DNA of 64,000 nucleotides, taken from the NCBI GenBank assembly GCA_003567725.1, contig PWYU01000077.1:1-64000 (forward strand). The letters are read 5' to 3'. Made by a program: the position numbers and the translations under genes. This DNA comes from Syntrophomonadaceae bacterium (GTDB lineage: Bacteria > Bacillota > Dethiobacteria > DTU022). The notes under the pieces were generated by a model. It worked only from the letters and a program-made list of their open reading frames with translations, did no database searches and was not told the origin of the DNA. Below are positions 5,226 through 38,446 of the stretch, in pieces. The stretch's first letter is position 1. Every line of letters begins with the position of its first letter.

Positions 5226-5254
5226 ATTTTAGATCAATGAGTCTTAATTGACAA
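5226..5254 (-). promoter_or_regulatory. Putative sigma-A promoter for argS-serS
   Basis: Minus strand has TTGTCA (rc 5249-5254), a 17-nt spacer, and TAAAAT (rc 5226-5231) inside the 114-nt gap upstream of argS. Confidence 0.45.
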
Positions 5255-5311
5255 ATTGATGATTACTACAACAAACAGGCTTGCAGGGAATTACTGTAAT
5301 TACTCTCTTTT

Positions 5312-7354: not shown

Positions 7355-7472
7355 TGTAAACACCTCCTGGCGTTACAACCAGAGTGTAGAATATTTTATC
7401 ATAACTTGAGGCTCAAACTAAAAGATAAATTCTTTAAAGTTTCTTGAATAAAGATTAATAAACCATAACATT

Positions 7473-8885: not shown

Positions 8886-9577
8886 TAAAGATCCTCCCTG
8901 AGTTTATAGCCCGTTCCCCATACTGTAATTATAAACTCTGGATTTGCCGAATCTGATTCTATTTTTTCTCTCAAATGCCTTATGTGCACATCCACAGTCC
9001 GGACATCACCATAGTAATCATAGCCCCAAACCTGGGCCAGGAGTTGTTCTCTTGAGTATACATTACCGGCATTAATCGCTAAGTAACTCAACAAGGCAAA
9101 TTCTTTTGAAGTTAAACTGATCTCCTTTTCCCCAATGCGAACTCGATGCTGTAATAAATCAATCTCCAATTTGCCAATTTGAATCTTTTTTTTCGATCCT
9201 TCCTCTGATAAAGTCGTACGTCTCAATACTGCTTTTATTCGAGCTACCAGTTCTCGTGAATTAAAAGGCTTGGTTAAATAATCATCGGCTCCGAGCTCCA
9301 AGCCTAAAACCTTGTCAATATCTTCGCTGCGGGCTGTTAACATAATTATCGGTACTTCTAACTTTTTACGTATCCTTCTGCATACTTCAAAACCATCAAC
9401 TTCCGGAAGCATTAAATCAAGCACTACCACATCAGGCTTCAAGGAAAAGACCTTATCCAGAGCCTCTTCTCCATCATAGGCCACCTCAACCCTAAAGCCT
9501 TCTTTCTCCAGGTTAAAGGTAAGCGCTTTTACCAGTGTTTTTTCATCATCAACCACCAGAACCAATTCATTACTCAT
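8885..9577 (-). CDS. OmpR-family response regulator (WalR/MtrA-like)
   Basis: The REC domain carries LVVDDE…D…K motifs. The winged-helix C-terminus reads REQLLAQVWGYDYYGDVRTVDVHIRHLREKIE. The start is taken at M6 (MSNELVLVV), which has GGAGGGG 8 nt upstream; the ORF-track M1 has no RBS and would overlap the UDG gene. Confidence 0.9.
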   Translation of the reverse strand: MSNELVLVVDDEKTLVKALTFNLEKEGFRVEVAYDGEEALDKVFSLKPDVVVLDLMLPEVDGFEVCRRIRKKLEVPIIMLTARSEDIDKVLGLELGADDYLTKPFNSRELVARIKAVLRRTTLSEEGSKKKIQIGKLEIDLLQHRVRIGEKEISLTSKEFALLSYLAINAGNVYSREQLLAQVWGYDYYGDVRTVDVHIRHLREKIESDSANPEFIITVWGTGYKLREDL

Positions 9578-10259
9578 TAGCCACCCCTCCATTACCAGGT
9601 TTATGGTAAACCTTTACAACTTCTTGTATGTCTTGCCACACAAATTTTTTTTTGCCCGGATCTCTTAATAGCGCAGCAGGATGAAAAGTAGCCATGAAAA
9701 GCCTTTTCCCAATTCTGCGCCAGCTTCCACGAAACCTGGTAATAGAAGCATGTTTATCTATTAATGATTTTGTAGCAAGCGAACCAAGGCAAACTATGAT
9801 ATCCGGATCTATTAAGTCTATTTGTTTCAGAAGATAGGGCATACAAGCTTCTATTTCCGATTGGACTGGCAACCTGTTATTAGGAGGGCGGCATTTTACA
9901 ACATTTGTTATGTAAACTTCTTCCCGACTAATTTCTGCTGCCTTCAATATTTTATTGAGAAGCTGCCCGGCTCGGCCAACAAAGGGCTCTCCCTGCCTGT
10001 CTTCGTCTCCGCCCGGACCTTCTCCTATAAACATTAAACGGGTATTGTGATTACCTGTACCAAAAACCACCTGCTGGCGCCCTTCTTTTAGCGGGCAATT
10101 TCTGCAGGCCAAGGCTGTTTCCTTCAACCGGCCCAGTTCATTAGCAGCAGCTTCGCTACTGGCAATTTGGGGATTGTTATCCTGCATCTCTGGTGAGCTG
10201 GTATGGCTGTTTATAATATCCATGAGGGATTTTTGTTGCTCTTCTTTAATTGCATTCAC
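9570..10259 (-). CDS. Family-4 uracil-DNA glycosylase (4Fe-4S UDG)
   Basis: Motifs are CRNCPL…GEGPGGDEDRQGEPFVGRAGQLL…ITNVVKCRPPNNR…FHPAALLR. The ORF start is GTG with a weak RBS, so the true start may be an internal Met. The stop is 5 nt from the RR start codon. Confidence 0.8.
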   Translation of the reverse strand: MNAIKEEQQKSLMDIINSHTSSPEMQDNNPQIASSEAAANELGRLKETALACRNCPLKEGRQQVVFGTGNHNTRLMFIGEGPGGDEDRQGEPFVGRAGQLLNKILKAAEISREEVYITNVVKCRPPNNRLPVQSEIEACMPYLLKQIDLIDPDIIVCLGSLATKSLIDKHASITRFRGSWRRIGKRLFMATFHPAALLRDPGKKKFVWQDIQEVVKVYHKPGNGGVANE

Positions 10260-10321
10260 CCCGCTTTATGGTGGATTCCGGTCTATTAACCAGGCATGCC
10301 CAATCCAATTCCCTGTAGAGT

Positions 10322-11428
10322 TTACTCAGGAGGTGAAACCATTAAACTATTCCGGCGTTGAAAACGCTCCTCAGCCAATTCCAATAATCTGCTGACAAGA
10401 TGATTATAATTTAATCCACTAGCTTCCCACAATTTTGGATACATACTTATGCTGGTGAACCCGGGAATGGTATTAATCTCAATTAAGGTAACACTTTCAA
10501 CCAGGGGATTCACAAAAAAGTCTACCCGAGCCAGGCCGCTGGCTTCAACTGCCTGAAAAGCCAGGGCAGAATATGTTCTCACTGTGCTCTCCAGTTTATC
10601 ACCCAGCTCTACAGGTATGACCAGCTCGGAGCGATCATCAATATATTTGGCCCGGTAATCATAAAATTCATTGCATGGAATAATTTCTCCCGGACGTGAA
10701 GTATGGATCTTCACATCACCAAGAACACTGCATTCTATTTCTCTTCCTTCCAAAAAGCTTTCTATTATCACTTTTTCATCATAAAGTAGCGCCTCTTCAA
10801 TTGCTGCAACCAGTTTATCTTCAGTACTAACTTTTGAGATTCCAACACTGGATCCCAGGTTGGCAGGCTTGACAAAACAAGGAAAGCCCAGTTTATTGGC
10901 AATATCTCCTATCCATTTGTTTTCGCTGCCAGTCCATTCCCAGCGGAAAAAGTATAAAAAAGGTGCTACCGGCAATCCTTTTTCTTTAAATAAGGTTTTC
11001 ATAACTACCTTGTCCATAGCCGTGCTGGAAGCTAATACTCCCGAACCCACATATGGAAGGCCAGCCATTTCAAATAATCCTTGAATGGTTCCGTCTTCGC
11101 CATAAGTACCATGCAGAACAGGAAATACTATGTCGACAGGTTGGTAACGCCACTCAGAAAGAGATTCTGATGCTTTTACAAGTAAACCCGGGCGAGCAGG
11201 ATCAGTCATTATAACGGCGGTTGTGGCTTCTCTTGGCAGGCGATTTTCCCACAACGCCAACCAGGCGTCAGGCCCGGTAAGCCAGGCCCCTGCTCGTGTA
11301 ATCCCAACAGGAATAATATCAAACCGCTCTTTATCAATCGCTTCCATAATTGAAGCAGCTGAACGAAGGGAAACAACATGCTCCCCGGAGCGTCCGCCAA
11401 AGATTACCGCCACTTTTTTACGTTCCAT
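10322..11428 (-). CDS. ddl: D-alanine--D-alanine ligase
   Basis: 368 aa with an ATP-grasp fold. N-terminus is KVAVIFGGRSGEHVVSLRSA and C-terminus is ARVDFFV…EINTIPGFT. Confidence 0.9.
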   Translation of the reverse strand: MERKKVAVIFGGRSGEHVVSLRSAASIMEAIDKERFDIIPVGITRAGAWLTGPDAWLALWENRLPREATTAVIMTDPARPGLLVKASESLSEWRYQPVDIVFPVLHGTYGEDGTIQGLFEMAGLPYVGSGVLASSTAMDKVVMKTLFKEKGLPVAPFLYFFRWEWTGSENKWIGDIANKLGFPCFVKPANLGSSVGISKVSTEDKLVAAIEEALLYDEKVIIESFLEGREIECSVLGDVKIHTSRPGEIIPCNEFYDYRAKYIDDRSELVIPVELGDKLESTVRTYSALAFQAVEASGLARVDFFVNPLVESVTLIEINTIPGFTSISMYPKLWEASGLNYNHLVSRLLELAEERFQRRNSLMVSPPE

Positions 11429-11653
11429 AACAACAACTCCTCAGAGTGGAAACAGTTTGCCTGATAATTTATTCATTATGATTATATCATACCTAAAAAA
11501 TCTAAGAAGAGGTCAAAATATAAAGCTTTTAGGGCAGTTCATGAACAGGTACGTTATAATAATATTTGAGCAGTATAATCATGTTGTGAAAATTTTTATT
11601 GATTAAAACTATATAATGCTCCGCTATTAAGAAAGTGAGGACAGACAATACAA

Positions 11654-12853
11654 ATGCAGACCCCTGTAGTGATGTTAGGAGCAAACTTTTATACTGCATT
11701 AGGCGCTATCCGAACGCTGGGCCGTAGAAGGGTGCCGGTTTATGCCCTGGATTACCATTTTCCAAGTGCCTATGCTCTAGCCTCACGTTATGTTACTAAA
11801 AGCATCCTGTGCCCAAATATTAATACCAGCGAGAAAGAACTATCTGAATTTTTGATTAATATGGGTCAAAGCTTTGAGAAAAAGCCGGTATTAATGGCGA
11901 GCGCCGACAGTTATGCCCTGTTAATTTCACGTTATGCTAACGTTTTAACCGATTACTATCTTTTTCCTGATAACCCCGATGATTTGCTGGAACAGATCAT
12001 TGCAAAAGACGGTTTAAATAGATTAGCAGCAAAACATGAAATGTTAACCCCTAAAACTATTACCGTGGATTACAAATCTGATATTAATCAGGTAGCAGAG
12101 AACATACCTTACCCTTGTATTATTAAACCGGCTTTGTCGCATGAGTTTGTAAAAGTGTTTCGACAGAAGTGCCTTTTTGCAGAAAACAGGGCAATACTGC
12201 TGAAAACTTTAGAATCAGCCCTTTCCAGCGGACTTGAAGTTATGGTTCAAGAAATAGTGCCCGGCTTCGATGATCAAATGTACGTTTTTGATTTCTATGT
12301 TGATCAAAAAGGCCATATTACACATACTTTAACGGCTCAAAAATTACGTCAGTTTCCAATTAATTTCGGTTCATCAACGCTTACTCATCATATGCATAAT
12401 CAGGACCTGGTAGAGCTGGGCAAAGATTATATTAAACGTTTGGGATTTCGTGGATATGGTGAAATAGAATTTAAACAACACCCTGATAACGGTGCCTATT
12501 ATTTAATCGAAATTAACGCTCGCTTAAGCACTTTGAATGTGCTATTCGACAAGTGCGGACTGGAATTTACTTACGTAATGTACCGAGATCTTATTGGTGA
12601 ATCTCTACCAGATTTTCATCTCAACGAAACTAAACCATGGGCATTCTGGCATGCTTATGAAGATATGATTAGTATTTCTGCTTACCTTAAAACTAAACAA
12701 CTAACTTTAACCCAGGTTATCCGCCCCTGGTTAACTCATCACAAAGCTCATGCCATCTGGGCTGCAGACGATATAAAGCCTCTATTATCTTTTGCCAGGC
12801 TTATCTTCACTAAAATCTATAATAAGTTACGCCAAACCCTGAGCAGAAAATAA
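11654..12853 (+). CDS. ATP-grasp superfamily enzyme of unknown specificity (COG3919-like)
   Basis: 399 aa. A pre-ATP-grasp N-terminal domain is followed by an ATP-grasp core (…PYPCIIKPALSHEF…MVQEIVPG…YYLIEINARLS). It is divergent from ddl across a 225-nt AT-rich region. Confidence 0.7.
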   Translation: MQTPVVMLGANFYTALGAIRTLGRRRVPVYALDYHFPSAYALASRYVTKSILCPNINTSEKELSEFLINMGQSFEKKPVLMASADSYALLISRYANVLTDYYLFPDNPDDLLEQIIAKDGLNRLAAKHEMLTPKTITVDYKSDINQVAENIPYPCIIKPALSHEFVKVFRQKCLFAENRAILLKTLESALSSGLEVMVQEIVPGFDDQMYVFDFYVDQKGHITHTLTAQKLRQFPINFGSSTLTHHMHNQDLVELGKDYIKRLGFRGYGEIEFKQHPDNGAYYLIEINARLSTLNVLFDKCGLEFTYVMYRDLIGESLPDFHLNETKPWAFWHAYEDMISISAYLKTKQLTLTQVIRPWLTHHKAHAIWAADDIKPLLSFARLIFTKIYNKLRQTLSRK

Positions 12854-12987
12854 TTACAGTAAAAGCAAAAAGACGGCTTTTTAAGGCCGCCTTGTTGTAG
12901 CTTATAACATGATTAGTACTCATATAATTTTAGTGTATCGCTGTTTTAGCTGGATTGCTTTGCAATCCTTCTTAAAACAAAACCCGT

Positions 12988-15075
12988 TTAGGCTTCTTCT
13001 TCTTTTTCTACCTGCGCTGCAGCAACAATCTGTTCTGCCACATTATGAGGCACCTCTTCGTAATGTGAAAAATCCATACTAAAAAAGCCACGGCCCTGGG
13101 TCATGGAGCGTAAATCTATGGAATACTTAAACATTTCGGCCATCGGAACCTGGGCCCTAATTTTTTGCATATTATCTTCCGGCTCCATCCCCTGGATTCG
13201 TCCCCGCTTACTGTTCAAATCTCCCATAATATCACCCATGAAAGTTTCGGGAACAAGGACTTCTACGTTCATAATTGGTTCAAGTAATATAGCTCCAGCC
13301 TGATCCACGCCTTTACGGAATGCTTGAGAGCCGGCAATTTTGAAAGCCATTTCGGAAGAGTCAACTGTATGATAGGAACCGTCAACCAGCCTGACCATTA
13401 CATCTACAACCGGGTAGCCGGCTACCACACCTTCTTCCATCGCTTCAAGGATGCCCTTCTCCACTGCAGGAACATATTGTTTTGGAACTGACCCGCCAAA
13501 TATTTTATTTTCAAATACAAGCCCATCACCAGGTTCAGCCGGTTCAAGCTCAATATAGACATGGCCAAATTGCCCGCGGCCACCAGATTGCTTTTTATGT
13601 TTTCCTTCCACTTTAGCCTGGCCTTTAATTGTTTCTTTATAAGGAACCTTGGGGGTTGACAGCTCCACATCTACTCCAAATTTTTGAGAAAGGCGGTTCA
13701 CGATAATATCCAGATGGAGCTCTCCCATTCCGGAAATAACTGTTTGTTTAGTTTCAACTTTTCTTTCTCCCCTAAAAGTTGGATCTTCTTCTAGAAAACG
13801 TGTAAGGCCGCTACCTACTTTATCTTCATCACCTTTGGTTTTAGGTTCAACTGCAAAGGAGATAACCGGTTTAGGAAAGTCAAGGGCCGGAAAAACAATT
13901 GGATTGCTCTTATCACAAAGAGTATCGCCTGTAATTGTATTCTGTAATTTGGCAACACAGGCAATATCTCCGGCAACCACCCCTTCCATGGAAATCTGGT
14001 TTTTACCGCGCATGGAGAAGACCTGCCCGAAACGTTCAGTTAAATCCTGGGTAGAGTTATATACCTGACTGTCAGGTTGAATGTTGCCTGAAAATACCCT
14101 AAAATAATTGATTCGTCCAACATAAGGATCGGCCAAAGTTTTGAAAACAAAGGTAGACATTGGCTCTTCATTGCTGAGGTTACGGGTAACTACATCCTTG
14201 CTTCCCGGTATATATCCCTTAACTTCTTCCTGATCAAAGGGTGTGGGAAGATAGCGCTTGATTAAGTCCAATAGAGGTTGAATCCCATAGTTTTTTGTTG
14301 CAGCACAGCAAAGAACAGGGATAGTTTTACCGGTGAGAACCCCTTTGCGCAGGCCTTCATTAATTTCCTCATCGGTTAACTCTTCACCTTCCAGGTATTT
14401 CTCAAGCAGGCTGTCATCGGTTTCGGCAATGGTTTCCACAAGCTTTTCCCTTAAATCTTGAGCCTGATCCTGATAATCACCCGGAATATCTTCTTCGGTA
14501 ACCTTCATGCCTTCTTCAGAAAACATAATCGCTTTTTGTTTGATCAGATCTACTACGCCTTTAAAGTCTGCTTCCTGTCCTATTGGCATTTGAACTGGCG
14601 CCACATTATGACCAAAGTTAGCCCTGAGCTGCTCCAGGGTGCCTTCAAAGTCAGCATTTTCACGATCAAGTTTGTTGATTACCACCAGGCGAGGCAGGTT
14701 ATAATCATCCGCATAGCCCCATACCTTTTCGGTTCCAACTTCTACACCCGACACAGCGCAAACTACCGCTACTACACTGTCAGCCGCCCGTAGAGCTCCT
14801 AAAACGTCGCCAATAAAATCAAAGTAGCCTGGAGTATCAAGCAAGTTAACTTTGATATCATCCCATTCCAGAGGAGCCAGGCCAACGTTTATGGTTACCT
14901 GCTTTTTTGTTTCATCGGGATCGTAGTCAGTAGTAGTGTTGCCCGCTTCAATTTTCCCAAGGCGGTTAATTGTCCCCGAAGTAAAAAGCAGCGCTTCGGT
15001 GAGAGAGGTTTTCCCGGCACTGCCATGGGATATTAACGCTACATTGCGAATATTTTCGCTGTTATACTTCTTCAT
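12988..15075 (-). CDS. Elongation factor G paralog (EF-G2-like translational GTPase)
   Basis: 695 aa with all five EF-G domains. The G1 motif is divergent (ISHGSAGKTS rather than AHIDAGKTT) and the G3 motif is DTPGYFDF. RBS GAGGAGG. Confidence 0.8.
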   Translation of the reverse strand: MKKYNSENIRNVALISHGSAGKTSLTEALLFTSGTINRLGKIEAGNTTTDYDPDETKKQVTINVGLAPLEWDDIKVNLLDTPGYFDFIGDVLGALRAADSVVAVVCAVSGVEVGTEKVWGYADDYNLPRLVVINKLDRENADFEGTLEQLRANFGHNVAPVQMPIGQEADFKGVVDLIKQKAIMFSEEGMKVTEEDIPGDYQDQAQDLREKLVETIAETDDSLLEKYLEGEELTDEEINEGLRKGVLTGKTIPVLCCAATKNYGIQPLLDLIKRYLPTPFDQEEVKGYIPGSKDVVTRNLSNEEPMSTFVFKTLADPYVGRINYFRVFSGNIQPDSQVYNSTQDLTERFGQVFSMRGKNQISMEGVVAGDIACVAKLQNTITGDTLCDKSNPIVFPALDFPKPVISFAVEPKTKGDEDKVGSGLTRFLEEDPTFRGERKVETKQTVISGMGELHLDIIVNRLSQKFGVDVELSTPKVPYKETIKGQAKVEGKHKKQSGGRGQFGHVYIELEPAEPGDGLVFENKIFGGSVPKQYVPAVEKGILEAMEEGVVAGYPVVDVMVRLVDGSYHTVDSSEMAFKIAGSQAFRKGVDQAGAILLEPIMNVEVLVPETFMGDIMGDLNSKRGRIQGMEPEDNMQKIRAQVPMAEMFKYSIDLRSMTQGRGFFSMDFSHYEEVPHNVAEQIVAAAQVEKEEEA

Positions 15076-21924: not shown

Positions 21925-22182
21925 AAAAAACCCTCCGCCCAAAGGGGCGAAGGGGCTTCCTCCGCGGTACCACCCTTTTCATATCTGACCTTAACAATAG
22001 TTCAAGGTGTTTCTCAACGATTTTGATAACGGTATCACCCCGGCCCGGCTTACTATTAATTCAGCCAGGCGGCTCCAGACCGACATTCAACATCACCCTT
22101 TACCGGTTTCCAGCAAATCCGGCTCTCTGTAAAAAGAATAATGCTTACTCCTGTCTTTCACAGCATTTAAAGTAAAAGATTG
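21925..22182 (-). promoter_or_regulatory. T-box riboswitch leader controlling ilvE-ilvD-ilvBN-leuCD
   Basis: Minus strand carries the conserved T-box sequence AAAGGGTGGTACCGCGG (rc of 21962-21978). Directly after it is the terminator hairpin CCCTTCGCCC-CTTTG-GGCGGAGGG + TTTTTT (rc of 21925-21957). The 5' portion contains an AGAGAG stem-I element. The specifier codon is not resolved by eye. Confidence 0.7.
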
Positions 22183-22188
22183 TTTAAT

Positions 22189-22217
22189 ATTATAGCCCGC
22201 TAGATAGCTGGTGTCAA
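22189..22217 (-). promoter_or_regulatory. Consensus sigma-A promoter driving the T-box leader
   Basis: Minus strand has TTGACA (rc 22212-22217), a 17-nt spacer, and TATAAT (rc 22189-22194). Confidence 0.6.
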
Positions 22218-22310: not shown

Positions 22311-23822
22311 TTAATTTACCGGATAAACAAAATTTAAATCGTCACTCCAAAAAAGGCTTTCATCAACCTGATATATGTTGTCAAAATTGATATTATTGGT
22401 TTTGTTATCGTCTTTAGACACCTCATCTTTATTTGCATAGTTGCTGCAGGTGTCCTTCAAGTTTAAAGGCGGCAGCTCCCCTTTACGCCTTTTAAAGAAA
22501 TCCAGGGCCACATTGGGGAAGATGATATAAGAGAGCACATCTTCTTCCTGCTCAATATAGTCAGCAATTTCAGTTCTCGCTTTATCCAATTGCGGTTCCA
22601 GTAAATCAGCAGGACGGCCTGTAATGGGAGACTCATCTTTAAGGACAATCTTTTGCAGTTCGCTGCTGGTTTCTCCAGGAGGTTTTCCATAAAGGCCGCG
22701 CATGTAATTCTTAACTTCGGTTAAGACCATCTTGTAACGCTCACCAGTTAGTACATTAACTACAGCCTGAGTGCCTACAATCTGGCTGCTGGGAGTAACC
22801 AGGGGCGGATATCCAAGATCTGCCCTGACTTTAGGAACTTCGGCAAGCACATCTTTAAGAAGATGAGTAGCCTTAGATTCCGCCAGCTGTGATGCCAGGT
22901 TAGAGATCATGCCACCTGGTATTTGATAATTCAAAACATTTGTATCCACACCCATTACATTTCTAGGGATTTCATAATCACAGCTTATTTCAGTGAAATA
23001 ATCGCTTACTTTTGTTAAAAGATCCAGATCCAGACCAGTATCATAGGGGCTATCTTTTAAGGCTGCAACCAGGGTGTCTGTAGCCGGTTGGCTGGTTCCC
23101 ATCGACAGGGGCGCGGTAGCGGTATCAATTACATCGACACCGGCTTCAATAGCTTTTATATAGGCCATCGAAGCCATCCCGCTCGTATAATGGCAGTGCA
23201 GCTGGACCGGTAATCCCACTTCCTCTTTAAGGCGTTTTACCAGTTCAAATGAGTTAAAAGGGGATATCAAACCGGCCATATCTTTTATACACAACGAATC
23301 CGCTCCCATATCTTTCAAATCAGATCCGATTTTTATAAAATAATCATTATCGTGAAAGGGGCTGATGGTATAACTGATTGTGCCCTGAGCATGGGCCCCT
23401 TCTTCTTTAGTTGCATAGATCGCTTTTTCCATATTACGTAAATCATTTAAGGCATCAAATATCCTGATGATATCAATACCATTGGCTACAGCTTTTTTAA
23501 TAAATTCAACAAGAACATCGTCCGGGTAATGACGATAACCAACAATATTTTGGCCGCGCAAAAGCATTTGCAGTTTGGTATTCTTTAAACCTTTACGTAA
23601 TTGGCGAAGGCGCTCCCATGGATCTTCATCCAGGTAACGCATGCAGGAATCAAATGTTGCTCCTCCCCAAACTTCGAGAGAATGATAACCCACCTGTTCC
23701 ATTAACTCAAGAACTGGCAACATTTCTACCAGGCGCATTCTGGTAGCCAGGAGTGATTGATGTGCATCACGTAATGATGTATCGGTAATCTTCACTTTAT
23801 TTTTTGCATTCAAAAACAACAC
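22311..23822 (-). CDS. Carboxyltransferase 5S-type subunit (HMGL-like pyruvate/oxaloacetate carboxyltransferase domain) lacking a biotinyl domain
   Basis: 503 aa. The N-terminus KITDTSLRDAHQSL… and the conserved carboxylase domain resemble PycB/OadA-alpha and the transcarboxylase 5S subunit. The C-terminus has no AMKM biotin-attachment motif. It lies 33 nt downstream of gyrA. Confidence 0.75.
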   Translation of the reverse strand: MLFLNAKNKVKITDTSLRDAHQSLLATRMRLVEMLPVLELMEQVGYHSLEVWGGATFDSCMRYLDEDPWERLRQLRKGLKNTKLQMLLRGQNIVGYRHYPDDVLVEFIKKAVANGIDIIRIFDALNDLRNMEKAIYATKEEGAHAQGTISYTISPFHDNDYFIKIGSDLKDMGADSLCIKDMAGLISPFNSFELVKRLKEEVGLPVQLHCHYTSGMASMAYIKAIEAGVDVIDTATAPLSMGTSQPATDTLVAALKDSPYDTGLDLDLLTKVSDYFTEISCDYEIPRNVMGVDTNVLNYQIPGGMISNLASQLAESKATHLLKDVLAEVPKVRADLGYPPLVTPSSQIVGTQAVVNVLTGERYKMVLTEVKNYMRGLYGKPPGETSSELQKIVLKDESPITGRPADLLEPQLDKARTEIADYIEQEEDVLSYIIFPNVALDFFKRRKGELPPLNLKDTCSNYANKDEVSKDDNKTNNINFDNIYQVDESLFWSDDLNFVYPVN

Positions 23823-23855: not shown

Positions 23856-26273
23856 TTAATCCAACCCGATCAAGTTAACCAGGCGATCGTCTTTATCCAA
23901 CCGGATTAGGGTCACACCTCGGGCATATCGTTTCATAAGCGAAACTTCTTCTACTTTTTGGCGGTTAATAACCCCCCGGGCAGTAACGATCATAAATTCT
24001 TCTGCTTCTCCGTTTAAAACCATAAATACCGCCAGCGGTCCACTCTTCCTGGTTGTTTTCATGCCGATATTTCCCTTGCCACCGCGTCGCTGCGCGTTGA
24101 ATTCTTTGACCAGGACTCGTTTTCCGTACCCCTTTGCGGAAGCGATTAAAAGCTGATCGTCACCAGTTACCAGATCTGCTCCGATTATTCTATCTTCAGG
24201 CCCCAGGGTGACTGCTTTAACTCCCCTGGCGGCCCGGCCCATAGCCCGCACTTCCCCTTCAGAGAAACGGACGAATAAACCGGCGCTTGTACCGACAATC
24301 ACTTCTTTTTGGCCGTCTGTCAACCTAACGGCCATAAGCTCATCTTCAGGTGACAGGTTTAAGGCAGTAAGGCCGGTTTTTCTGGTATTCCTGTATTCTT
24401 TTAATGAAGTTTTCTTGATCATGCCCCGTACTGTAACCATAAGCAAAAATCGATCCTCGCTGAACTGATCAATAGGCAGAGTGGCAGTAATATGCTCTTT
24501 CTCCTCCAGGGGCAGCAAATTAACTAAAGCTGTTCCCCTGGACTGTCTGCCAGACTCCGGTACTTCATGAATTTGCAGTAAATAAACCTTACCGCGGTTG
24601 CTAAAACACAGCAATTTATCATGAGTCGATGCCACATGGCATTGTTCTACACAATCATTTTCCCGGGTCTGCATACCTAAAACACCACGGCCACCCCGAT
24701 GCTGACTTCGATAAGTAGTTAAAGGCAGCCGCTTGATATAACCCCGATCGGTTAGCGTTACGACAACATCTTCTTGAAAAATTAAATCGGTTAGCACTAC
24801 TTCACTAATATCAGCGACAACCTGGGTTCTTCTTTCATCGGCATGTTTATTCTGAACTACAGCCAGCTCATCGCTGATTATTCCCATTACCAGGTTATCG
24901 TCTTCCAAAACCTGCTTCAAATATGCTATTTTATCGATTAACTGCTGCTGCTCTTCTGTCAGTTTTGATATCTCGAGCTGGGTTAGCCGCTGCAAGCGCA
25001 TATCCAGAATAGCTTGAGACTGCTTTTCAGTAATGCTTAGTAAATCCATCAGGCCTTGCCGGGCAGTAACCACATCCTTGGAAGCCCTGATCAAGGCTAT
25101 AACCTCATCAAGGCGATCAAGGGCTGCCAGCAATCCTTCAACAATATGCAATCTTTCTTCAGCTTTTCTTAAGTCAAAAAGGGACCGGCGCCTGATTACA
25201 TCTTTCTGGTGCTCAAGGTAACAGACAAGCATCTGCTTAAGATCTAAAACCTGTGGCTGTCCGTCAACTAAGGCCAGCATTATAATACCGTAAGTCTGCT
25301 GCAGAGAAGTATACTGATAAAGCTGATTAATGATTACCTGGGGGTCGTAATCTTTCTTGACTTCTATAACTATGCGGACACCTGAACGATCGGATTCATC
25401 ACGCAGATCGGTTATGCCTTCCATCTTCCGTTCCTTTACAATTTCCGCAATCTTTTCAACCAGCCTGGCTTTATTTTGCTGATAGGGCAATTCGCTAATG
25501 ACAAGCTGATTGCGGCCTTTATCCTTCTTTTCAACTTGAACCAGGCCCCTGATTTTTATAATTCCTCGGCCGGTAGTGTAAGCAGAGTTAATACCTTCAT
25601 GGCCCACTATAATGCCACCGGTTGGAAAATCGGGGCCTTTGATAAATTGCAGCAGATCCCGCACCGATGCTTCAGGATTTGCAATGAGGAGTTTAATGGC
25701 CTCGATTAATTCATTAAGATTGTGAGGAGGGATGTTGGTAGCCATACCCACGGCAATACCTGAAGAACCGTTTGCCAAAAGGTTTGGAAAACGGGAAGGT
25801 AAAACAACCGGTTCTTCAAGGCTCTCATCAAAATTAGGCCTAAAATCCACAGTTTCTTTATGCAAGTCCGTTAACATCTCGCTGGCAATAGTAGACAGGC
25901 GCGCCTCTGTGTAGCGCATTGCCGCAGCAGAATCTCCATCCTGCGAACCAAAATTACCATGACCGTCAACCAGGGGATAGCGAGTCGTAAATACCTGGGC
26001 CAGGCGGACCAGGGCATCATATAAGGCTACATCACCGTGCGGGTGATATTTCCCCAGCACTTCACCAACAATTCTAGCTGATTTCCGGTAAGGCTTATCA
26101 TGTGTAGAACCCATTTCTGACATAGCATAAAGAATACGTCTGTGCACAGGCTTAAGGCCGTCTTTAACATCAGGCAGGGCTCTGCTTACAATAACGCTCA
26201 TAGCATAATCAAGGAAAGAAACCTTGACTTCATCATAAATATTAACGGGAACTATATTTTCTCTTTCGGCCAT
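23856..26273 (-). CDS. gyrA: DNA gyrase subunit A
   Basis: 805 aa with N-terminus …[20 protein letters not shown]… (active-site Tyr region) and C-terminal beta-pinwheel repeats. Confidence 0.95.
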
Positions 26274-26414
26274 TTCTTCTCCTTAAAATATGGATTGAGG
26301 AAGTAGTACATTAATATAAGTTTACCATATTATATTAGAACAGAAAAGATATGCAGCGACCATTTCAGAAACCAGGTTGCAACATAACAAGCAAAATATA
26401 AATCCAGGCTTTTA

Positions 26415-26933
26415 TTATGGAATAGAGACAAATATCTTTAACAGGATGGGTTCGCTTGCATAGTCTGTCAGATCGTACTCTTGATCATGGATATAAAGTC
26501 GATCTTTAGTTAAAGGAGCTACAAACAAACCAATATCCTGTCTTGGTTTTTCTTCATGGTAGACAACAAAATTACCATTAGCTATTTCAACTTTAACTGA
26601 CCCATCTAAATCTGGAAGCCCTGGTCCAAATGAATCAAAAAAAGTAGCAAGGGGTTTAATCCGGCCTGAGTCAGTAATTTTAAACTCACCTGAAACATCT
26701 TGTTTGCTCACAGAGTGCTGATATGATAACTGAAATACATCACCCTTAACTACCGGTATGGCATAAATAACTTCTTCATGCTCCTGGGCTTCTATAATCA
26801 ATTGCCACTGCTGCCGGGGTAAGACTATAAATATATAGAAAACTAGAGCAAGCACGCCCAAGAATAAAAGCAGATAAAAAATCCACCTTTTCTTAATTCC
26901 TGATCGTGCCTGCTTATGATTTAAATTAATCAT
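26415..26933 (-). CDS. DUF1850-family protein associated with TAXI-TRAP transporters
   Basis: The start is taken at M42 (MINLNHK…), which has AGGTG 8 nt upstream; the longer ORF would overlap the permease gene by 86 nt. It has a single N-terminal TM and then a beta-rich domain. Confidence 0.65.
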   Translation of the reverse strand: MINLNHKQARSGIKKRWIFYLLLFLGVLALVFYIFIVLPRQQWQLIIEAQEHEEVIYAIPVVKGDVFQLSYQHSVSKQDVSGEFKITDSGRIKPLATFFDSFGPGLPDLDGSVKVEIANGNFVVYHEEKPRQDIGLFVAPLTKDRLYIHDQEYDLTDYASEPILLKIFVSIP

Positions 26934-26970
26934 TTTAAAACACCTGCCCGCCCAGCTAAAACTTTTATGA

Positions 26971-29019
26971 TCAAGCAGGTGAAATGCCTTTTGCATCTTC
27001 AAAAGCTTTCCGTCGCCGCTGGTGCAAATAGATAAAAACAAAAACACTGACTCCAATTATATCTGTAAGGATAGTCGGCCAGATCATTGAGACAGCAATA
27101 GCAAGCAAAATGGCCTGTTCATAAATCCTGAGCTTTGTAAACAGCCAGCGCTGAATTACTGCACTAAAACAATACATGCCAAAAAGAGAAGTTAAGGAAA
27201 CCAGGACGGCTTTATCCCAGGTTGTATCGATCAAAAGAAACTCAGTATTGTAGATAAACATGAACGGCAGCAAAAAAGCGGCCATATCAACCTTGAAGCC
27301 CTGGATCCCGGTTCTGATCGGCTCCGACTTGGCTACAGCTGCAGCCGAATAAGCCGCTACCCCAACCGGAGGTGTGTCATCGGCCAGGATGGCATAGTAA
27401 AGAATAAAAAGGTGGATGCCAACTACCGGCAGATCCGGCTCAACAAAAAGCACCGCCGGGGCAACCAGGGTAGCCATGATCACGTATTTGGCAGTTGTGG
27501 GAAGGCCCATGCCAAGGATAATTGACATTATCGCAGAGATAACCAGTAATAAAAAAAGACTGTCTCCGGCAAGGACCGAGAAAAAGATCGTCATCCTCAG
27601 GCCCAGGCCAGTCAGGCTGATAACACCAACAATTAAGCCGGCGCAGGCACAGGCAACGCCAATTCCGGCCATGCTTTTAGCTGAAGCATCCAGGCCGTCA
27701 ATAAACTCTTTACCCATGGTTTTAACAGACTGCGCAAAGGCCTCTGATAACTCCATCGTTCCGGAGCGCACAGCTTTAAAACCTTGCAAAACTTTAACAG
27801 CAAAACTTACTACGAGCATTGCCATAATCCCGTAAAAACCTGCTGTTAGGGGAGTAACCCGCAGGATCAAGAGGTAGTAAATAAGAATTATCACCGGTAT
27901 CCAAAAATGAATTCCCGCTATAAAAGTAGAAATAAAGGGCGGGATTTCTTCCCGGGGAAGCGCCTTTATGCCGGTTTTTGCCGCTTCCAGGTCAACCATG
28001 ATCAACAAGGCCACATAACTCATTACCGCCGGCAGCGCCGCGTGTATGCAAATCTGGTAATAGGGGATACCGGTAAATTCAGCCATGATAAAAGCGGCTG
28101 CACCCATGATTGGAGGTAAAAACTGACCGTTAGTTGAGGCGGCAGTTTCAATCCCCCCGGCTACCTCCGGTTTAAAACCGGCTCGTTTCATCATAGGAAT
28201 AGTCATCGAACCGGTGACCACCGTGTTTGCCACGGAACTTCCGACAATACTGCCCATAAATCCGCTGCCCACTACGGCAGCTTTGGCCGGCCCCCCCCTC
28301 GTTCTTCCCAGCATGGCATTAGCCAGCTGAACCAGGTATGCTCCGGCTCCTGAAGCCTGAAAAAAGCAGCCGAACATGACAAATACAAAAACAAAGGAGG
28401 CCGCTACACCCACGGGAATGCCGAACATGCCCTCGCCTGTTAAATAGAGGTGATCAATTACTCGTCTCAAGCCGTAACCCCGGTGGGCGATCAGATCCGG
28501 CAGATAAGGGCCCAGGTAAGTATAAGACAGGAAAACGATTGTCACCACCGGCAGGACAAAACCAAAAGCGCGCCTGGCCGTTTCCAGGATCATTAGCACA
28601 GCTGCGGCCCCAAAAATCAGATCTATCGGAAGCGGGCTGCCAACCCGGTGGGCCAGGTCTTCGTAAAAGATAAAAACATAAAAAACAGAAGCAAAGCTGA
28701 CCAGGGCTAGTAAAATATCGTAAAAAGGAAGCTTATGATATTGCTCTTTTATTTTTTTGTTTAATGGAAAATACAAGAAACAAAGAACAAGGGCTACTGA
28801 CAGGTGAGCTGAACGTTGCAAGCTGGCTGTAAGCTGTCCTGCTCCCGCTGTATAAAGGTGGAATAGAGCCCATAATGCTCCGATCGCAAATATGATAAGT
28901 CCCGCTTTGCCGGCTAATTGCCTCGTCATGCCTTCTTCCGTAAACTTTTTCAATTCTTCTGGAAGTTCAGGGGTTCCAATATTATTGTCAGCCTGCACAA
29001 AAATCCACCTCTCTAGCAA
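26971..29019 (-). CDS. TAXI-type TRAP transporter fused 4TM/12TM permease
   Basis: 682 aa and polytopic. The ORF begins with TTG; an alternative ATG at 28929 (M31) is possible. Confidence 0.85.
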   Translation of the reverse strand: MLERWIFVQADNNIGTPELPEELKKFTEEGMTRQLAGKAGLIIFAIGALWALFHLYTAGAGQLTASLQRSAHLSVALVLCFLYFPLNKKIKEQYHKLPFYDILLALVSFASVFYVFIFYEDLAHRVGSPLPIDLIFGAAAVLMILETARRAFGFVLPVVTIVFLSYTYLGPYLPDLIAHRGYGLRRVIDHLYLTGEGMFGIPVGVAASFVFVFVMFGCFFQASGAGAYLVQLANAMLGRTRGGPAKAAVVGSGFMGSIVGSSVANTVVTGSMTIPMMKRAGFKPEVAGGIETAASTNGQFLPPIMGAAAFIMAEFTGIPYYQICIHAALPAVMSYVALLIMVDLEAAKTGIKALPREEIPPFISTFIAGIHFWIPVIILIYYLLILRVTPLTAGFYGIMAMLVVSFAVKVLQGFKAVRSGTMELSEAFAQSVKTMGKEFIDGLDASAKSMAGIGVACACAGLIVGVISLTGLGLRMTIFFSVLAGDSLFLLLVISAIMSIILGMGLPTTAKYVIMATLVAPAVLFVEPDLPVVGIHLFILYYAILADDTPPVGVAAYSAAAVAKSEPIRTGIQGFKVDMAAFLLPFMFIYNTEFLLIDTTWDKAVLVSLTSLFGMYCFSAVIQRWLFTKLRIYEQAILLAIAVSMIWPTILTDIIGVSVFVFIYLHQRRRKAFEDAKGISPA

Positions 29020-29034
29020 CCATTATTTCAAAGT

Positions 29035-29068
29035 AGAGTGCAGGGCTTTATTAAAAGCCCTGCACTCT
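29035..29068. terminator. Perfect 15-bp hairpin between the TAXI receptor and permease genes (putative intra-operon attenuator)
   Basis: agagtgcagggcttt-atta-aaagccctgcactct, 15 bp with no mismatches. It lies 17 nt after the receptor stop and 16 nt before the permease start. Confidence 0.6.
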
Positions 29069-29085
29069 GAGTAATAATGGTTGCT

Positions 29086-30087
29086 TTATTCAACCAGTCC
29101 CTGCTCCTGGTAATATTTTTCTGCACCAGGATGAAGCTCAATAGGCATTCCCTCAAGAGCAGTATCCAAAGTGATCAGGGTTCCCCTTTCGTGGGCACCA
29201 TGAATAGTATCTATATTTTCAAAAAGCATGCTGGTAAATTCATAAGCCAGATCTTCGGAAAGATCTGCATGCCCTACCACCATGGCCAGCACGGCTACAG
29301 TGGTAGCTTCCGGAACTCCGCTGTAGGTTTCGGCCGGGATTACTTCTTTGGAATAATAAGGATAGGTCTCGAGCAACCAGTCGATTTTATCATCTTCTAT
29401 GTCAACCATTATTACATCTTTTACAATGGCTACTTCTTCGATAGCGGCAGCACCCAGTCCCGTAGTAAAGAAAGCGGCATCAATACGATCGTCACGTAAA
29501 AAGTCAGCCGCTTCACTGGCGGTTAAACGCTCAACAGAACCAAGGTCATCAAAAGTCAGGTCGTAGGCTTCCAGGATCTGCACGGCATTGGCTTCAGTTC
29601 CGCTGCCTAGGGGGCCTACAGCAACAGCTTTGCCAGCCAGATCTCCGGCGTTTTCAATGCCGGAATCGGCGCTGGCTACAATCTGGCAGTGCTCGGGGTA
29701 AAGGGTAAAGAAGCCCCTCATTTCCGGAACCCCTTCGTCTTCAAACATTTGAACACCGTTGTAAGCATAATAGGCAATGTCGTTCTGAAGTATAGCGAGC
29801 TCGGCATCTTTTGTGCCGATCAGGCGGGCATTGGCTACTGATGCGCCGGAAGATTCAGCAGTTAAACTAATATTATCCATATTCTCATAAGCAACACGGG
29901 ACATGGCCCCGGAAACAGGATAATAAACACCGGCAACCCAACCTGAAGCGATAGTCCAGCGCACCGGGCCATCAACTTCTTCTTCCGGCTCAGGGCCTGC
30001 AGCCTCTTCCTCACAACCAACAACCATTACTAAAGTTACCATAAAAATCAAAACAAGCACCAAACTTAAAACTTTTCTAAAGTCCAT
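29086..30087 (-). CDS. TAXI-family TRAP transporter solute-binding receptor (lipoprotein-like signal peptide)
   Basis: 333 aa. The N-terminus MDFRKVLSLVLVLIFMVTLVMVVGC has a lipobox-like Cys. A TAXI/Imp periplasmic-binding fold region follows (…WTIASGWVAGVYYPVSGAMSRV…LQNDIAYYAYNG…). Confidence 0.8.
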   Translation of the reverse strand: MDFRKVLSLVLVLIFMVTLVMVVGCEEEAAGPEPEEEVDGPVRWTIASGWVAGVYYPVSGAMSRVAYENMDNISLTAESSGASVANARLIGTKDAELAILQNDIAYYAYNGVQMFEDEGVPEMRGFFTLYPEHCQIVASADSGIENAGDLAGKAVAVGPLGSGTEANAVQILEAYDLTFDDLGSVERLTASEAADFLRDDRIDAAFFTTGLGAAAIEEVAIVKDVIMVDIEDDKIDWLLETYPYYSKEVIPAETYSGVPEATTVAVLAMVVGHADLSEDLAYEFTSMLFENIDTIHGAHERGTLITLDTALEGMPIELHPGAEKYYQEQGLVE

Positions 30088-30418
30088 TATTAATTTTTAA
30101 CCTCCTCAAATTTAGTTCTTTTTGTGAATCCGGTACCCGATCAAGTTTATTGCATCACCCCCTGTTTAATAATCTTTCTATTCTGCTGAGTGAAAATCTT
30201 TTTGGATTCTATAAGCTTATACATCTACTTGAAACTTATTTAATTTTCTATGAACACATTTTTTATCCTGCAAATAAAATGTTAAATTATCTTAAAATGT
30301 CAGGAATAGTAAAGCTGAAATTCATAACTCTCCAGCAATCTATGAAAGCTGCTTAGTAAAGAAAAGAAGAATCCTAAATATAAATATTTCTGCACTATAT
30401 CTCAGTAAAGAGCATTAT

Positions 30419-31765
30419 TTAATTGATTTTCTCTCCGACCTTATCAAGAGTAAGGCTTAGGAGCTGAACTAACAAGTCCATTTCTTCTTCATTTATGGTA
30501 AATGGGGGGGCGATCAGCAAATAGTCCCTGGGTGTTACATCTGCTGTCCTACCAACGCCGGTATAGAGCATTAAGCCATGATCCAGATCATTCATGGCAA
30601 TTTCTCGGGCTTTCTCAGCAATATTTTTTGCTGCCGGGAATGATTCTTTCGAGGCTTTATCTTTTACCAGCTCTAAACCTAAGAGTAAGCCAAGCCCTCG
30701 AACATCACCTACGATTGCATTTTTTTCAGCAATCTGGTGCAGCTTTTCTTTTAGATAGCGTCCTTTACTTTCGACCCGTTGGAACAGATTATGGTCTTTT
30801 AAGTAGCGGTTAACAGCCACGCCTGCGGCGCAACTAACAGGATTTCCTTGATAAGTGTAACCATGGATGAATTTACGGGCATTGCGATTGAAGGTATCAT
30901 ATACTTTATCTGTCATTAACACAGCAGCGAGCGGAGTATATCCACCACCAAGGCCTTTGCCAAGCGTGACCAGATCAGCACTGGCGTCAAAATGATCCAA
31001 AGCCAGGTAACGCCCGCTGCGACCATAACCACAGATCACTTCATCGGTAATCATCAGCACATCATAACGATTGCATATTTCGCGGACTATGGAAAAATAT
31101 TCTTTAGGAGGAACGCTTGCTGCAGCAGAAGTGCCGATAATTGGCTCAAGTATAAATGCAGCTACGTTTTCCGGACCTTCTGAAAGAATGGTATTCTCTA
31201 ATTCATAGGCGCAGCTTACTCCACATTCAGGATAAGTAGCATTGCAGTAACAACGATAACAGTGCGGAGCAGGCACTAGGGGGAAAGGCATTACCAGAGG
31301 CGAGTACATTCGGCGTCTCTGGATATTGCCGGCAGCAGATAGCGTCGCAAATGAACTGCCGTGATAACTAAGGCGCCTGCCAATAATTTTCCATTTAGAG
31401 GGATTATTGTTTTGGCGGTGATATTGAAGAGCTATACTAAAAGCAGTTTCATTGGCTTCTGTACCGCCTGAAACAAAGTAAACATAATCCATTCCACCAG
31501 GAGCATCTTCTGTTATTAGACGTGCTAATTCTTCCTGCGGTTTACTTGTAAATACAGAGCCATGTGAAAAACCGGTTTGCCGGGCTTCCTGGTATAATGC
31601 TTCAGCAACCGATTCTACACCGTATCCGATATTGGTTACGACACAACCTGAAGCGCCATCTAAATATTTTCTCCCCTGGTTATCCCAAACATAAACACCC
31701 GTTCCTTTCTCTATGACAGGATATTTTGTTTCTAAAGAACGATAAAAAACATTTGATTCTGCCAA
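30419..31765 (-). CDS. Class-III (omega) PLP aminotransferase with a Cys-rich insertion
   Basis: 448 aa with class-III AT motifs (…FVSGGTEANETA…, …DEVICGYGRSGRY…, TLGKGLGGGY, PLP-Lys region). An unusual five-Cys segment reads HCYRCYCNATYPECGVSC. Confidence 0.85.
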   Translation of the reverse strand: MAESNVFYRSLETKYPVIEKGTGVYVWDNQGRKYLDGASGCVVTNIGYGVESVAEALYQEARQTGFSHGSVFTSKPQEELARLITEDAPGGMDYVYFVSGGTEANETAFSIALQYHRQNNNPSKWKIIGRRLSYHGSSFATLSAAGNIQRRRMYSPLVMPFPLVPAPHCYRCYCNATYPECGVSCAYELENTILSEGPENVAAFILEPIIGTSAAASVPPKEYFSIVREICNRYDVLMITDEVICGYGRSGRYLALDHFDASADLVTLGKGLGGGYTPLAAVLMTDKVYDTFNRNARKFIHGYTYQGNPVSCAAGVAVNRYLKDHNLFQRVESKGRYLKEKLHQIAEKNAIVGDVRGLGLLLGLELVKDKASKESFPAAKNIAEKAREIAMNDLDHGLMLYTGVGRTADVTPRDYLLIAPPFTINEEEMDLLVQLLSLTLDKVGEKIN

Positions 31766-31865
31766 GTTCTGCTCACCTCGTTATCCTATAATTTAATATC
31801 CAATCAATGCCTGAATGAATAGCAAAACCAGCTAAGCCTTAAATTTTACTTAACAAAAAGAGTTT

Positions 31866-33782
<1,917 letters not shown>

Positions 33783-37024: not shown

Positions 37025-38446
37025 TCAGGAATTATTCAGGATATTATTTTTAATAAGCTCGATTCGATGTTTAAAATCATTGTCGTTAGAAATCATTTGT
37101 TCAATTTTTTTAAAAGCATGAAGTACAGTAGTATGGTCTCTGCCGCCAAACTCTTCTCCAATTTTTGGTAAAGACAAATCGGTCAGCATGCGGCACAAAT
37201 ACATAGCAACTTGTCTGGTCAAAGCAATATCTTGAGTTCTTTTTTTTGACTTAATTTCTTCCGGTTTAATATTAAAAGCTTCTGCGGTTACCTCTGTCAC
37301 ATAATTAATAGTAATATTTTTCTGGCGGGAAAAAATGATATCTTGTAAAGCTGCTTCAGTAAGATCCAGGGTAATAGGTGATTCAGATAAAGATGCGTAA
37401 GCGACAATCCTAATTAAAGCCCCTTCTAACTCTCTAATATTTGTAACAATTTTTTCAGCTATATATTGAATAACCTGATCGGGTATATCAATACCATCAG
37501 AAAGAGATTTTTTCTTAAGGATAGCTGTTCTGGTTTCCAGATCGGGAGGTTGCAGATCGGTAATTAAGCCCCATTCAAATCTGGAACGCAAGCGGTCTTC
37601 AAGGGTGGGTATCTCTTTAGGGGGGCGATCACTTGAAATAATTAGTTGCCGGTTGTTGTCATGAAGGGCGTTAAAGGTGTGGAAAAATTCTTCCTGGGTT
37701 TGTTCCTTACCTGCTAGAAATTGGACATCGTCAATTAAAAGAATATCCATATTTCTATATTTATTCCTAAAATCAAGAGTTTTGTTGTCTCGGATAGCAT
37801 TGATAAATTCATTGGTAAACTTTTCAGAGGAAAAGTAAAACACTCGGGAAAAGCCGTGTTTAATTAAAGTATACTGACCAATGGCGTGTAAAAGGTGGGT
37901 TTTACCAAGGCCTACACCACCATAAATAAAAAGAGGGTTATAAGCTCTTGCCGGGCTTTCTGCAACTGCCTGTGAAGCGGCATGAGAAAGACGGTTACAG
38001 GAGCCGACAACAAAAGTGTCAAAGGTATAACGGGGGTTGAAGCTGGAAATATGCTTGTTTTTGATGTGATCTTCTTCAGGAAGATTTTCATACTGTTCTA
38101 ATGGAGAACCTTGTTTTATAGAAAAAGATAAATTATTTTCATGTGAAAAATTTAAATGATCACTTGTTATATCAATCTGACTTTTATCTTCCAACTCAGA
38201 GGCAATAACAAATGTAACAGTATAATTATCGTTAGTTACTATTTTCAAAGCTTTAATAATTTGATCTCTGTATCGCGTTTCAAACCACTCTTTAGTAAAA
38301 TCGTTTGGAACTTCAATAATAAGGCAATTGTTGTCAATTGATACAGGCTTTGTCAGGTTAAACCAGGTTTCAAAACTGGGTTTATTTAAATCTTTGCTCA
38401 ATTCGGAAAGGATTAATTGCCAGGTTTCATTTAAATAGCTGTTCAC
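37025..38446 (-). CDS. dnaA: Chromosomal replication initiator DnaA
   Basis: 473 aa. The AAA+ Walker A is GGVGLGKTHL. The N-terminal domain I and C-terminal DnaA-box-binding helix-turn-helix are present. Confidence 0.95.
   Translation of the reverse strand: MNSYLNETWQLILSELSKDLNKPSFETWFNLTKPVSIDNNCLIIEVPNDFTKEWFETRYRDQIIKALKIVTNDNYTVTFVIASELEDKSQIDITSDHLNFSHENNLSFSIKQGSPLEQYENLPEEDHIKNKHISSFNPRYTFDTFVVGSCNRLSHAASQAVAESPARAYNPLFIYGGVGLGKTHLLHAIGQYTLIKHGFSRVFYFSSEKFTNEFINAIRDNKTLDFRNKYRNMDILLIDDVQFLAGKEQTQEEFFHTFNALHDNNRQLIISSDRPPKEIPTLEDRLRSRFEWGLITDLQPPDLETRTAILKKKSLSDGIDIPDQVIQYIAEKIVTNIRELEGALIRIVAYASLSESPITLDLTEAALQDIIFSRQKNITINYVTEVTAEAFNIKPEEIKSKKRTQDIALTRQVAMYLCRMLTDLSLPKIGEEFGGRDHTTVLHAFKKIEQMISNDNDFKHRIELIKNNILNNS

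Follow-up and report, generated by a model that had tools for sequence, protein, structure and literature searches.

Four metabolic genes separate gyrB and gyrA, which encode the two subunits of DNA gyrase, in the stretch of DNA analyzed here, a 64,000-nucleotide (nt) window of contig PWYU01000077.1. The source lineage is related to Dethiobacter and consists of uncultured "Syntrophomonadaceae" metagenome-assembled genomes (MAGs) recovered from the sediments of hypersaline soda lakes (PMC6146748). We consider it probable, at roughly 70%, that a catabolic module of four resident genes came to lie in the gyrB-gyrA spacer in a recent ancestor of one shallow clade of these Dethiobacter-related soda-lake Bacillota. 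The module, hereafter the cassette, would comprise a promoter-less gene for a class-III aminotransferase (AT3) and a self-regulated operon specifying a TAXI-family solute-binding lipoprotein, a fused TRAP permease, and a DUF1850 protein. Some 5.6 kb of new DNA would have taken the place of about 200 nt of ancestral spacer, together with the element that terminated gyrB, and would abut the gyrB stop codon with the gyrA promoter left untouched.

A derived gene order between gyrB and gyrA

Coordinates are those of the window, in which all genes of the gyrB-gyrA region lie on the minus strand; L-numbers (e.g., L081, L099) label compared loci from other assemblies. Gene identities were assigned by Pfam and NCBIfam profile searches against curated cut-offs, and the strong matches obtained bore out the identities, order, and strand proposed by an earlier sequence-only reading of this DNA. 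In transcription order, dnaA (37025-38446), dnaN, recF, a DciA/DUF721 gene, and remB precede gyrB (31866-33779; TIGR01059, 994.5 bits, cut-off 882.4), the left flank of the insertion. Then come AT3 (30419-31765; 448 amino acids; PF00202, 304 bits, cut-off 30.5, E = 1.7e-90), the TAXI gene (29086-30087; TIGR02122, 332.9 bits, cut-off 84.35; PF16868, E = 6.5e-82), the permease gene (26971-28998; TIGR02123, 664.1 bits, cut-off 320.65; PF06808 and PF11874), the DUF1850 gene (26415-26933; PF08905, 49.5 bits, cut-off 27), and gyrA as the right flank (23856-26273; TIGR01063, 1134.5 bits, cut-off 877). With corrected starts of the permease and DUF1850 genes, the successive spacers from gyrB to gyrA measure 100, 331, 87, 37, and 141 nt. 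Both topoisomerase genes encode gyrase and not topoisomerase IV, the gyrB product scoring 825.4 with the parE_Gpos model (cut-off 899.95) and the gyrA product 738.1 with parC_Gpos (cut-off 813.25). The cassette is located about 5 to 11 kb from dnaA and adjoins the likely replication origin; the GC skew flips sign near 37-38.5 kb of the window.

Judged from sequence comparison, the presence of the cassette between gyrB and gyrA is a derived, lineage-specific change of gene order. A neighbor-joining tree of dnaA, dnaN, recF, and gyrB (1788 columns, 200 bootstraps) groups the window with L104, L081, L084, and L001 in clade A (bootstrap 94%) and makes clade B (L099 and L100; 100%) its sister (98% for A+B), whereas L106 forms clade C with L105 and L101 (100%) and L002 is the outgroup. 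Clade A is shallow (gyrB at least 90% identical), and the cassette arrangement is common to all of its loci. In L099, L100, and L002 (gyrB 89%, 87%, and 74% identical to that of the window), gyrB and gyrA are adjacent, with 289 to 355 nt between them, and in L106 (83%) a small DUF5673 gene alone separates the two. Conservation of the arrangement throughout the order, which would make it ancestral, is thus not what synteny reveals: clade B, L106, and the outgroup have an empty or near-empty gap, in line with the insertion proposed in the sequence-only reading.

The borders of the change are sharp. Nucleotide homology between the window and L099/L100 extends to 31867, at the gyrB stop codon, and is picked up again at 26284, at the gyrA ribosome-binding site, about 5.6 kb of the window corresponding to about 280 nt in clade B. 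The gyrB-proximal part of the ancestral spacer, which carries a clear terminator-like hairpin in L002, is gone, and the gyrA-proximal part is kept. Transfer of the insertion between clades by recombination was considered and rejected, given that no mosaic was found at the 3' end of gyrB or the 5' end of gyrA; the identity ranking is uniform along both genes.

The block AT3-TAXI-permease-DUF1850 recurs in at least four genomic contexts, which supports the view that the aminotransferase and TAXI-TRAP genes make up a functional unit and agrees with the link between the two that had been proposed from the window sequence. One of these contexts is particularly informative about the origin of the cassette. 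In L082 and L083, the four genes follow an MFS gene and precede a divergent BKACE gene, in unchanged order, and the common neighborhood (IclR, methyltransferase, dockerin protein, MFS, cassette, BKACE) is syntenic at 65-74% amino acid identity, which marks the MFS/BKACE site as old and stable. L082 is binned with L099, a clade B locus with an empty gap, in one MAG (GCA_003564435.1). The window and L099 are 71-76% identical at the nucleotide level in the flanks; the window and L082 show the same 71-76% over AT3 and TAXI-permease, with 64% over a DUF1850 segment. Because the cassette has diverged as much as the flanks and is native in composition, the comparison favors a relocated resident module over foreign DNA. 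The genes of the presumed donor site (MFS, BKACE, and IclR) are absent from the 64-kb window.

Alternative origins of the cassette

The gyrB-AT3 arrangement is real and not an assembly artifact. gyrB is followed by AT3 in seven independent assemblies, i.e., the window and L001, L081, L084, L102, L103, and L104, the last being 93% identical to the window in nucleotide sequence; in two of these assemblies, GCA_007135065.1 and an ENA assembly, the gyrB protein is identical to that of the window and the same aminotransferase gene lies 3' of it. A chimera generated by assembly or binning could be suspected in any metagenomic data set, but it is scarcely conceivable for a junction that recurs across different projects and for a complete series (gyrB-AT3-TAXI-permease-DUF1850-gyrA-oadA-ilvE) that is also present in L081, the full gyrB-to-gyrA structure thus occurring in two contigs about 72-78% identical at the nucleotide level. 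The sequence-only reading had further described the four genes as a cargo. If it means a foreign genomic island, acquired recently from an unrelated donor, this term could appeal to the GC content at third codon positions (GC3) of the permease gene, which at 0.49 is marginally the highest in the window (maximum elsewhere, 0.46), and to a cassette GC of 0.44-0.48 that exceeds the 0.35 of the dnaA-recF region. However, gyrA and ilvD resemble the cassette in GC, and the comparison of GC and codon usage with the flanks that had been proposed in that reading did not single out the cassette: the permease GC3 excepted, GC3 and codon usage fall inside the range of the other 47 open reading frames (ORFs) of the window, with codon usage distances of 0.11-0.16, and compositional foreignness was not supported. 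Nor do the borders bear the marks of mobility. They show no direct or inverted repeats and no target-site duplications, profile searches found no integrase or transposase among the four cassette genes and six neighboring genes, and the nearest tRNA genes lie 24 kb away. The closest cassette homologues all come from the same soda-lake clade, their identities tracking those of gyrB. We regard a foreign island as very improbable, and composition and divergence point instead to a resident module that moved.

An older history of the module in this gap deserves more attention. In L105 (clade C, gyrB 85%), the gap is filled by a 9.2-kb module on the opposite strand (L105 11915-21143) with the order TAXI, permease, DUF1850, ferredoxin, three 2-oxoacid:ferredoxin oxidoreductase subunits, AT3, and DUF3221, followed by DUF5673 and gyrA; compared with the sister locus L106, homology is again broken at the gyrB stop codon. 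L101 (11917-21914) has an L105-type module together with an additional 5.4 kb (PEPCK, BrkB, and small ORFs) in the same place. This inverted and longer module in clade C suggests repeated use of the site. Alternatively, the module might already have occupied the gap before clades A, B, and C diverged; one lineage would later have inverted or rearranged it, clade B would have shifted it to the MFS site, and L106 would have lost it. Consistent with such an early entry, TAXI-TRAP-DUF1850 and AT3 share this gap in two of the three clades, and the identities of the transporter proteins follow the species order as vertical descent would have it (window versus L082, 83-87%; window versus L105, 77-78%). 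Yet this history needs at least four events versus two or three for independent entries, the gap lacks the module in L106, L099, L100, and the outgroup L002, and the modules of clades A and C are unlike in orientation, gene order, and content. In addition, two diverged species share synteny at the MFS site, and the clade C AT3, which is linked to the oxidoreductase, is placed on a different AT3 branch, albeit with weak support. We therefore rate a single ancient entry as unlikely; independent entries in clades A and C would need fewer events, but the difference is small. Several points nevertheless weigh against a recent placement in clade A: the related module in the gap of L105 and L101 is compatible with older presence followed by loss or relocation, all trees are neighbor-joining trees, and the AT3 tree is weakly supported (59-78%). 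The L082-L099 link, in turn, rests on the depositors' binning, and tetranucleotide composition, which does not separate these lineages, is non-discriminating for this pairing. A bolder reading would see the first ~100 nt 3' of the gyrB stop codon as a recurrent, selected landing site at which this amino acid catabolic module entered two or three times independently in Dethiobacter-related soda-lake bacteria, coupling AT3 to gyrB transcription and origin-proximal dosage. In model bacteria, gyrB transcription responds to DNA relaxation, and if this reading were true, amino acid catabolism would be linked to DNA topology or growth state; we find it quite improbable.

The separation of gyrB and gyrA in clade A is also less exceptional than was first thought. 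We classified 66 informative gyrB loci from diverse bacteria by their state downstream of gyrB. gyrA was located within 500 nt in 39 of the 66, a gap of 0.7-5.8 kb held other cargo in 10, and 17 had no gyrA in the available downstream sequence. Examples of this cargo are a TraG-like ATPase, plsX with fabF, and thiamin pyrophosphokinase. With gyrA within 500 nt in just 39 of 66 loci, a split gyrBA pair is not rare, and the designation of the insertion as unusual was too strong. The cassette is an ordinary lineage-specific change.

Expression of the cassette and of gyrA

The position of AT3 suggests that it is expressed through transcription of its upstream neighbor. The 100-nt gyrB-AT3 spacer (31766-31865) contains the AT3 ribosome-binding site GAGGTGAGC, which is the sole conserved element of the clade A spacers (62-100 nt), and neither a terminator nor a conserved promoter. 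Consensus scans and folding yielded no terminator-like hairpin after gyrB, AT3, or DUF1850 (z = -0.62, +1.4, and 0.0), in keeping with the earlier statement that the aminotransferase gene follows gyrB without an intervening terminator. At other sites, AT3 is similarly embedded: it starts 15 nt past the MFS stop codon in L082 and sits inside operons in L105 and L107. Since the spacer has no terminator and AT3 no conserved promoter, read-through from gyrB is probably the simplest model for AT3 transcription, against which a weak promoter-like match (9/12) at 31870-31843 has to be set.

The transporter genes would instead be fired from a promoter of their own. The 331-nt AT3-TAXI spacer (30088-30418) is AT-rich (GC 0.31 over 30000-30499) and has the features of a promoter/operator region, with TTAACA-16-AAAAAT at 30285-30258. 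The -35-like TTAACA doubles as the right half of an operator-like inverted repeat, TTnTTAA-N5-TTAACAA (30279-30298), which is followed by the conserved GAAGGAAA. The repeat has one mismatch to the consensus in the window and occurs once upstream of TAXI in L001 (13331), L081 (11461), L082 (11574), and L083 (8283); it is absent upstream of TAXI in L105. Found in both the gap and the MFS contexts, it travels with the cassette, and this conserved element strengthens the sequence-only proposal that the AT-rich spacer is a promoter region. A putative repressor would bind the inverted repeat; the cassette itself contains no regulator gene.

Other candidates in this region were discarded. A riboswitch or leader RNA in the 331-nt spacer was rejected because Rfam gave no match above the gathering score in 26200-31900, with chance-level hits only, and for five orthologous leaders RNAalifold predicted 0 conserved pairs. 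The conserved GGGGGTGA is followed by a tiny upstream ORF, which has only ~2 nt between ribosome-binding site and ATG and is not conserved in L082/L083. A sigma-54 promoter, an idea suggested by the activator gene in L107, was dismissed for lack of a GG-N10-GC element by eye.

A very stable hairpin separates the TAXI and permease genes (29015-29085, core 29035-29068; -43.7 kcal/mol, z = -9.8). A perfect 15-nt inverted repeat in the window, it is kept in seven loci, among which the GTGCAGG/CCTGCAC core never varies and 6 of the 14 pairs show compensatory changes. A U-run follows it in some relatives, so that it probably acts as a partial terminator or mRNA stabilizer. By analogy with hairpins that have a comparable role in other binding-protein-dependent operons, it would probably raise expression of the binding protein relative to the permease.

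On the right border, a promoter-like core with an extended -10, ATCTTTTCTG-N13-TGGTAAACT (26319-26350), aligns in occupied and empty sites. Its consensus, ATCTTTTCTG-N13-TGnTA(A/G)(A/G)(C/A)T, lies ~45-75 nt upstream of the gyrA ATG and is shared by the empty-site loci L099, L100, and L002 and the occupied L081. The sequence-only reading had reasoned that gyrA would have to rely on a promoter of its own or on read-through. The retention of this core agrees with the former, but the separation itself poses no problem, since empty-site relatives already have 289-355 nt between the two genes. gyrA thus appears to keep its own extended -10 promoter, and the insertion is not predicted to compromise it.

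Genes 3' of gyrA and elsewhere in the window

An oadA-like carboxyltransferase gene, a T-box leader, ilvE, and ilvD follow gyrA in transcription order. The oadA-like gene (22311-23822; 5S-type) is directly 3' of gyrA, as it is in L081, L099, L100, and L106, and its first in-frame start overlaps the gyrA stop codon; in L002, a gene for a FAD-binding protein (L002 14690-16003) separates the two. For the T-box leader upstream of ilvE (21931-22217; 119 bits), the promoter fits the consensus perfectly (TTGACA-17-TATAAT, 22217-22189), and the terminator, at 21954-21931, is strong. Three tandem tRNA genes are found at 1664-1933, on the minus strand.

Transporter components and the likely substrate

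The TAXI protein carries a signal peptide with the lipobox VVGC. In L083, a long Glu/Pro-rich repeat linker follows the lipobox (L083 8524-8712), and the window protein has a short one (EEEAAGPEPEEE). The permease fuses the small and large TRAP subunits and ends in a DUF3394 region. Its ORF extends to 29019, but the most likely start is the GTG at 28998, 6 nt after the ribosome-binding site GAGAGGTGG, which yields 675 amino acids, the length of the L081 homologue. For DUF1850, the ORF spans 26415-27056 and the ATG at 26933 is the start (172 amino acids), matching an identical public gene call. Its product, predicted to be a single-pass membrane protein with an N-terminal helix and an all-beta domain, accompanies every version of the module examined and is the fourth gene product of the clade A cassette. 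The AlphaFold2 model is poor (pLDDT 63), no sequence match exists among solved structures, the best Foldseek match is meaningless (E = 0.04, TM score below 0.3), and a word-based search retrieved just three homologues. Our literature search returned no mention of DUF1850 or of the pairing of TAXI with an aminotransferase.

The TAXI protein offers a clue to the substrate. Its best matches among solved structures are 8U79 and 1US4/1US5, the glutamate/glutamine-binding protein of Thermus (E ~1e-70). Thirteen binding-site positions have been defined in VcGluP, namely S40, V44, Y45, Y46, S75, Q93, H/Y123, E125, G156, D/T157, Y200, M/T201, and G203, and S40 and Y200 organize waters around the side-chain carboxylate in glutamate binders (PMC11574862). 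At 11 of the 13, the window protein equals the Thermus protein, including Y45, S75, Q93, E125, G156, and T201, which hold the alpha-carboxylate and amino group. The two exceptions, S40W and Y200F, are kept in all six TAXI orthologues and depart from glutamate binders, which makes a glutamate-specific importer less certain. Taken together, these residues suggest that the ligand is probably a glutamate-like alpha-amino acid whose distal end is different or less polar. Taurine and beta-alanine, which the sequence-only reading had listed among candidate substrates, gain no support from the binding site.

What AT3 might do with the imported compound is hinted at by its family and its neighbors. The protein has the Schiff-base lysine motif TLGKGLGGG and an ITDEV motif. 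Its best NCBIfam model, PRK06917, scores 481.2 bits, under the cut-off of 535, and all other models are likewise under theirs; a named specificity is thus not reached, which tells against assigning AT3 a defined reaction in the proposed pathway. Its best solved structure, 3I4J, has no assigned function. A metagenome scan with AT3 retrieved four close loci in all. Sister AT3 branches (L085 1746-10158; L086 2-3254; L087) belong to another operon, with a LIV-type ABC importer, AT3, aldehyde:ferredoxin oxidoreductase, and DUF3870, which suggests an amine-to-aldehyde-to-acid route. The recurrence of importers and of aldehyde- or 2-oxoacid:ferredoxin oxidoreductases next to AT3 suggests a catabolic role on an imported amino acid.

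Relatives of the cassette extend this picture. In L105 and L107, a 2-oxoglutarate-type oxidoreductase is encoded in one cluster with AT3 and TAXI-TRAP. The L107 cluster (1717-13137), which may represent a fuller pathway, comprises a sigma-54 activator, acyl-CoA dehydrogenase, 2-oxoglutarate-type ferredoxin oxidoreductase, AT3, TAXI, permease, and DUF1850; the acyl-CoA dehydrogenase is closest to glutaryl-CoA dehydrogenase, below the cut-off. The BKACE gene beside the L082 cassette is closest to the cleavage enzyme of lysine fermentation. Genes for the 2-oxoacid oxidoreductase and acyl-CoA dehydrogenase are absent from the window. We envisage that a glutamate-like amino acid is taken up by way of the binding protein, driven by protons or sodium, and is then transaminated by AT3, whose product would in relatives be passed to the 2-oxoglutarate-type 2-oxoacid:ferredoxin oxidoreductase. 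These gene associations suggest that the module imports and transaminates a C5-C6 acidic or lysine-derived amino acid, the substrate being a guess, to feed ferredoxin-dependent fermentation.

Significance and comparison with known systems

All components of the locus belong to known families, and the understanding of gyrase and of TRAP transport is unchanged. The interest of the locus lies in its being a clean, well-bounded case of a resident metabolic operon that would have moved between two essential conserved genes without disturbing them, through insertion upstream of a retained gyrA promoter and capture of a promoter-less gene by gyrB transcription. The conserved, uncharacterized pairing of TAXI-TRAP with a class-III aminotransferase makes a candidate amino acid fermentation route in abundant uncultured soda-lake Bacillota, extended in relatives by the 2-oxoglutarate-type ferredoxin oxidoreductase and the glutaryl-CoA-dehydrogenase-like enzyme. 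As very few TAXI ligands are known, the W40/F200 variant of the binding site is of interest, as is DUF1850, a fourth gene that these systems always include.

Integration hotspots between conserved core genes are a general concept of bacterial genome organization. The stretch just 3' of gyrB is like them in having taken 5.6 kb in clade A, 9.2 kb in L105/L101, and another 5.4 kb in L101, and the gap contains different cargo in other phyla. Unlike typical hotspots, the gyrB-gyrA gap has no recombinase, attachment site, or mobile-element gene, and the incoming DNA appears to consist of resident metabolic genes.

Among characterized enzymes, AT3 shares the PF00202 fold and the PLP-lysine motif (PLP, pyridoxal phosphate) with the class-III omega-aminotransferases, including the polyamine:pyruvate transaminase SpuC (9J4Z/6HX9), gamma-aminobutyrate transaminases, and 3I4J, with E-values of ~1e-80 to several pyruvate-dependent amine transaminases. 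It differs from the named members in falling under every equivalog cut-off. The TAXI protein matches TtGluBP of Thermus thermophilus (1US4/1US5) and VcGluP-QM of Vibrio cholerae (8S4J; PMC11574862) with E-values of ~1e-70 and 6e-49, and as in those systems, the permease is fused and has a C-terminal DUF3394 region. Unlike TtGluBP and VcGluP, it is a lipoprotein, is hydrophobic at positions 40 and 200, and is linked to a class-III aminotransferase and DUF1850. The 2-oxoglutarate TAXI-TRAP of Proteus mirabilis, a fused-permease system for a C5 dicarboxylate, is proton coupled (PMC11574862), and the module resembles it in that its relatives adjoin a 2-oxoglutarate-type ferredoxin oxidoreductase. 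It would differ from the Proteus system in that the binding site encoded in the window keeps the amino-group ligands of the glutamate binders.

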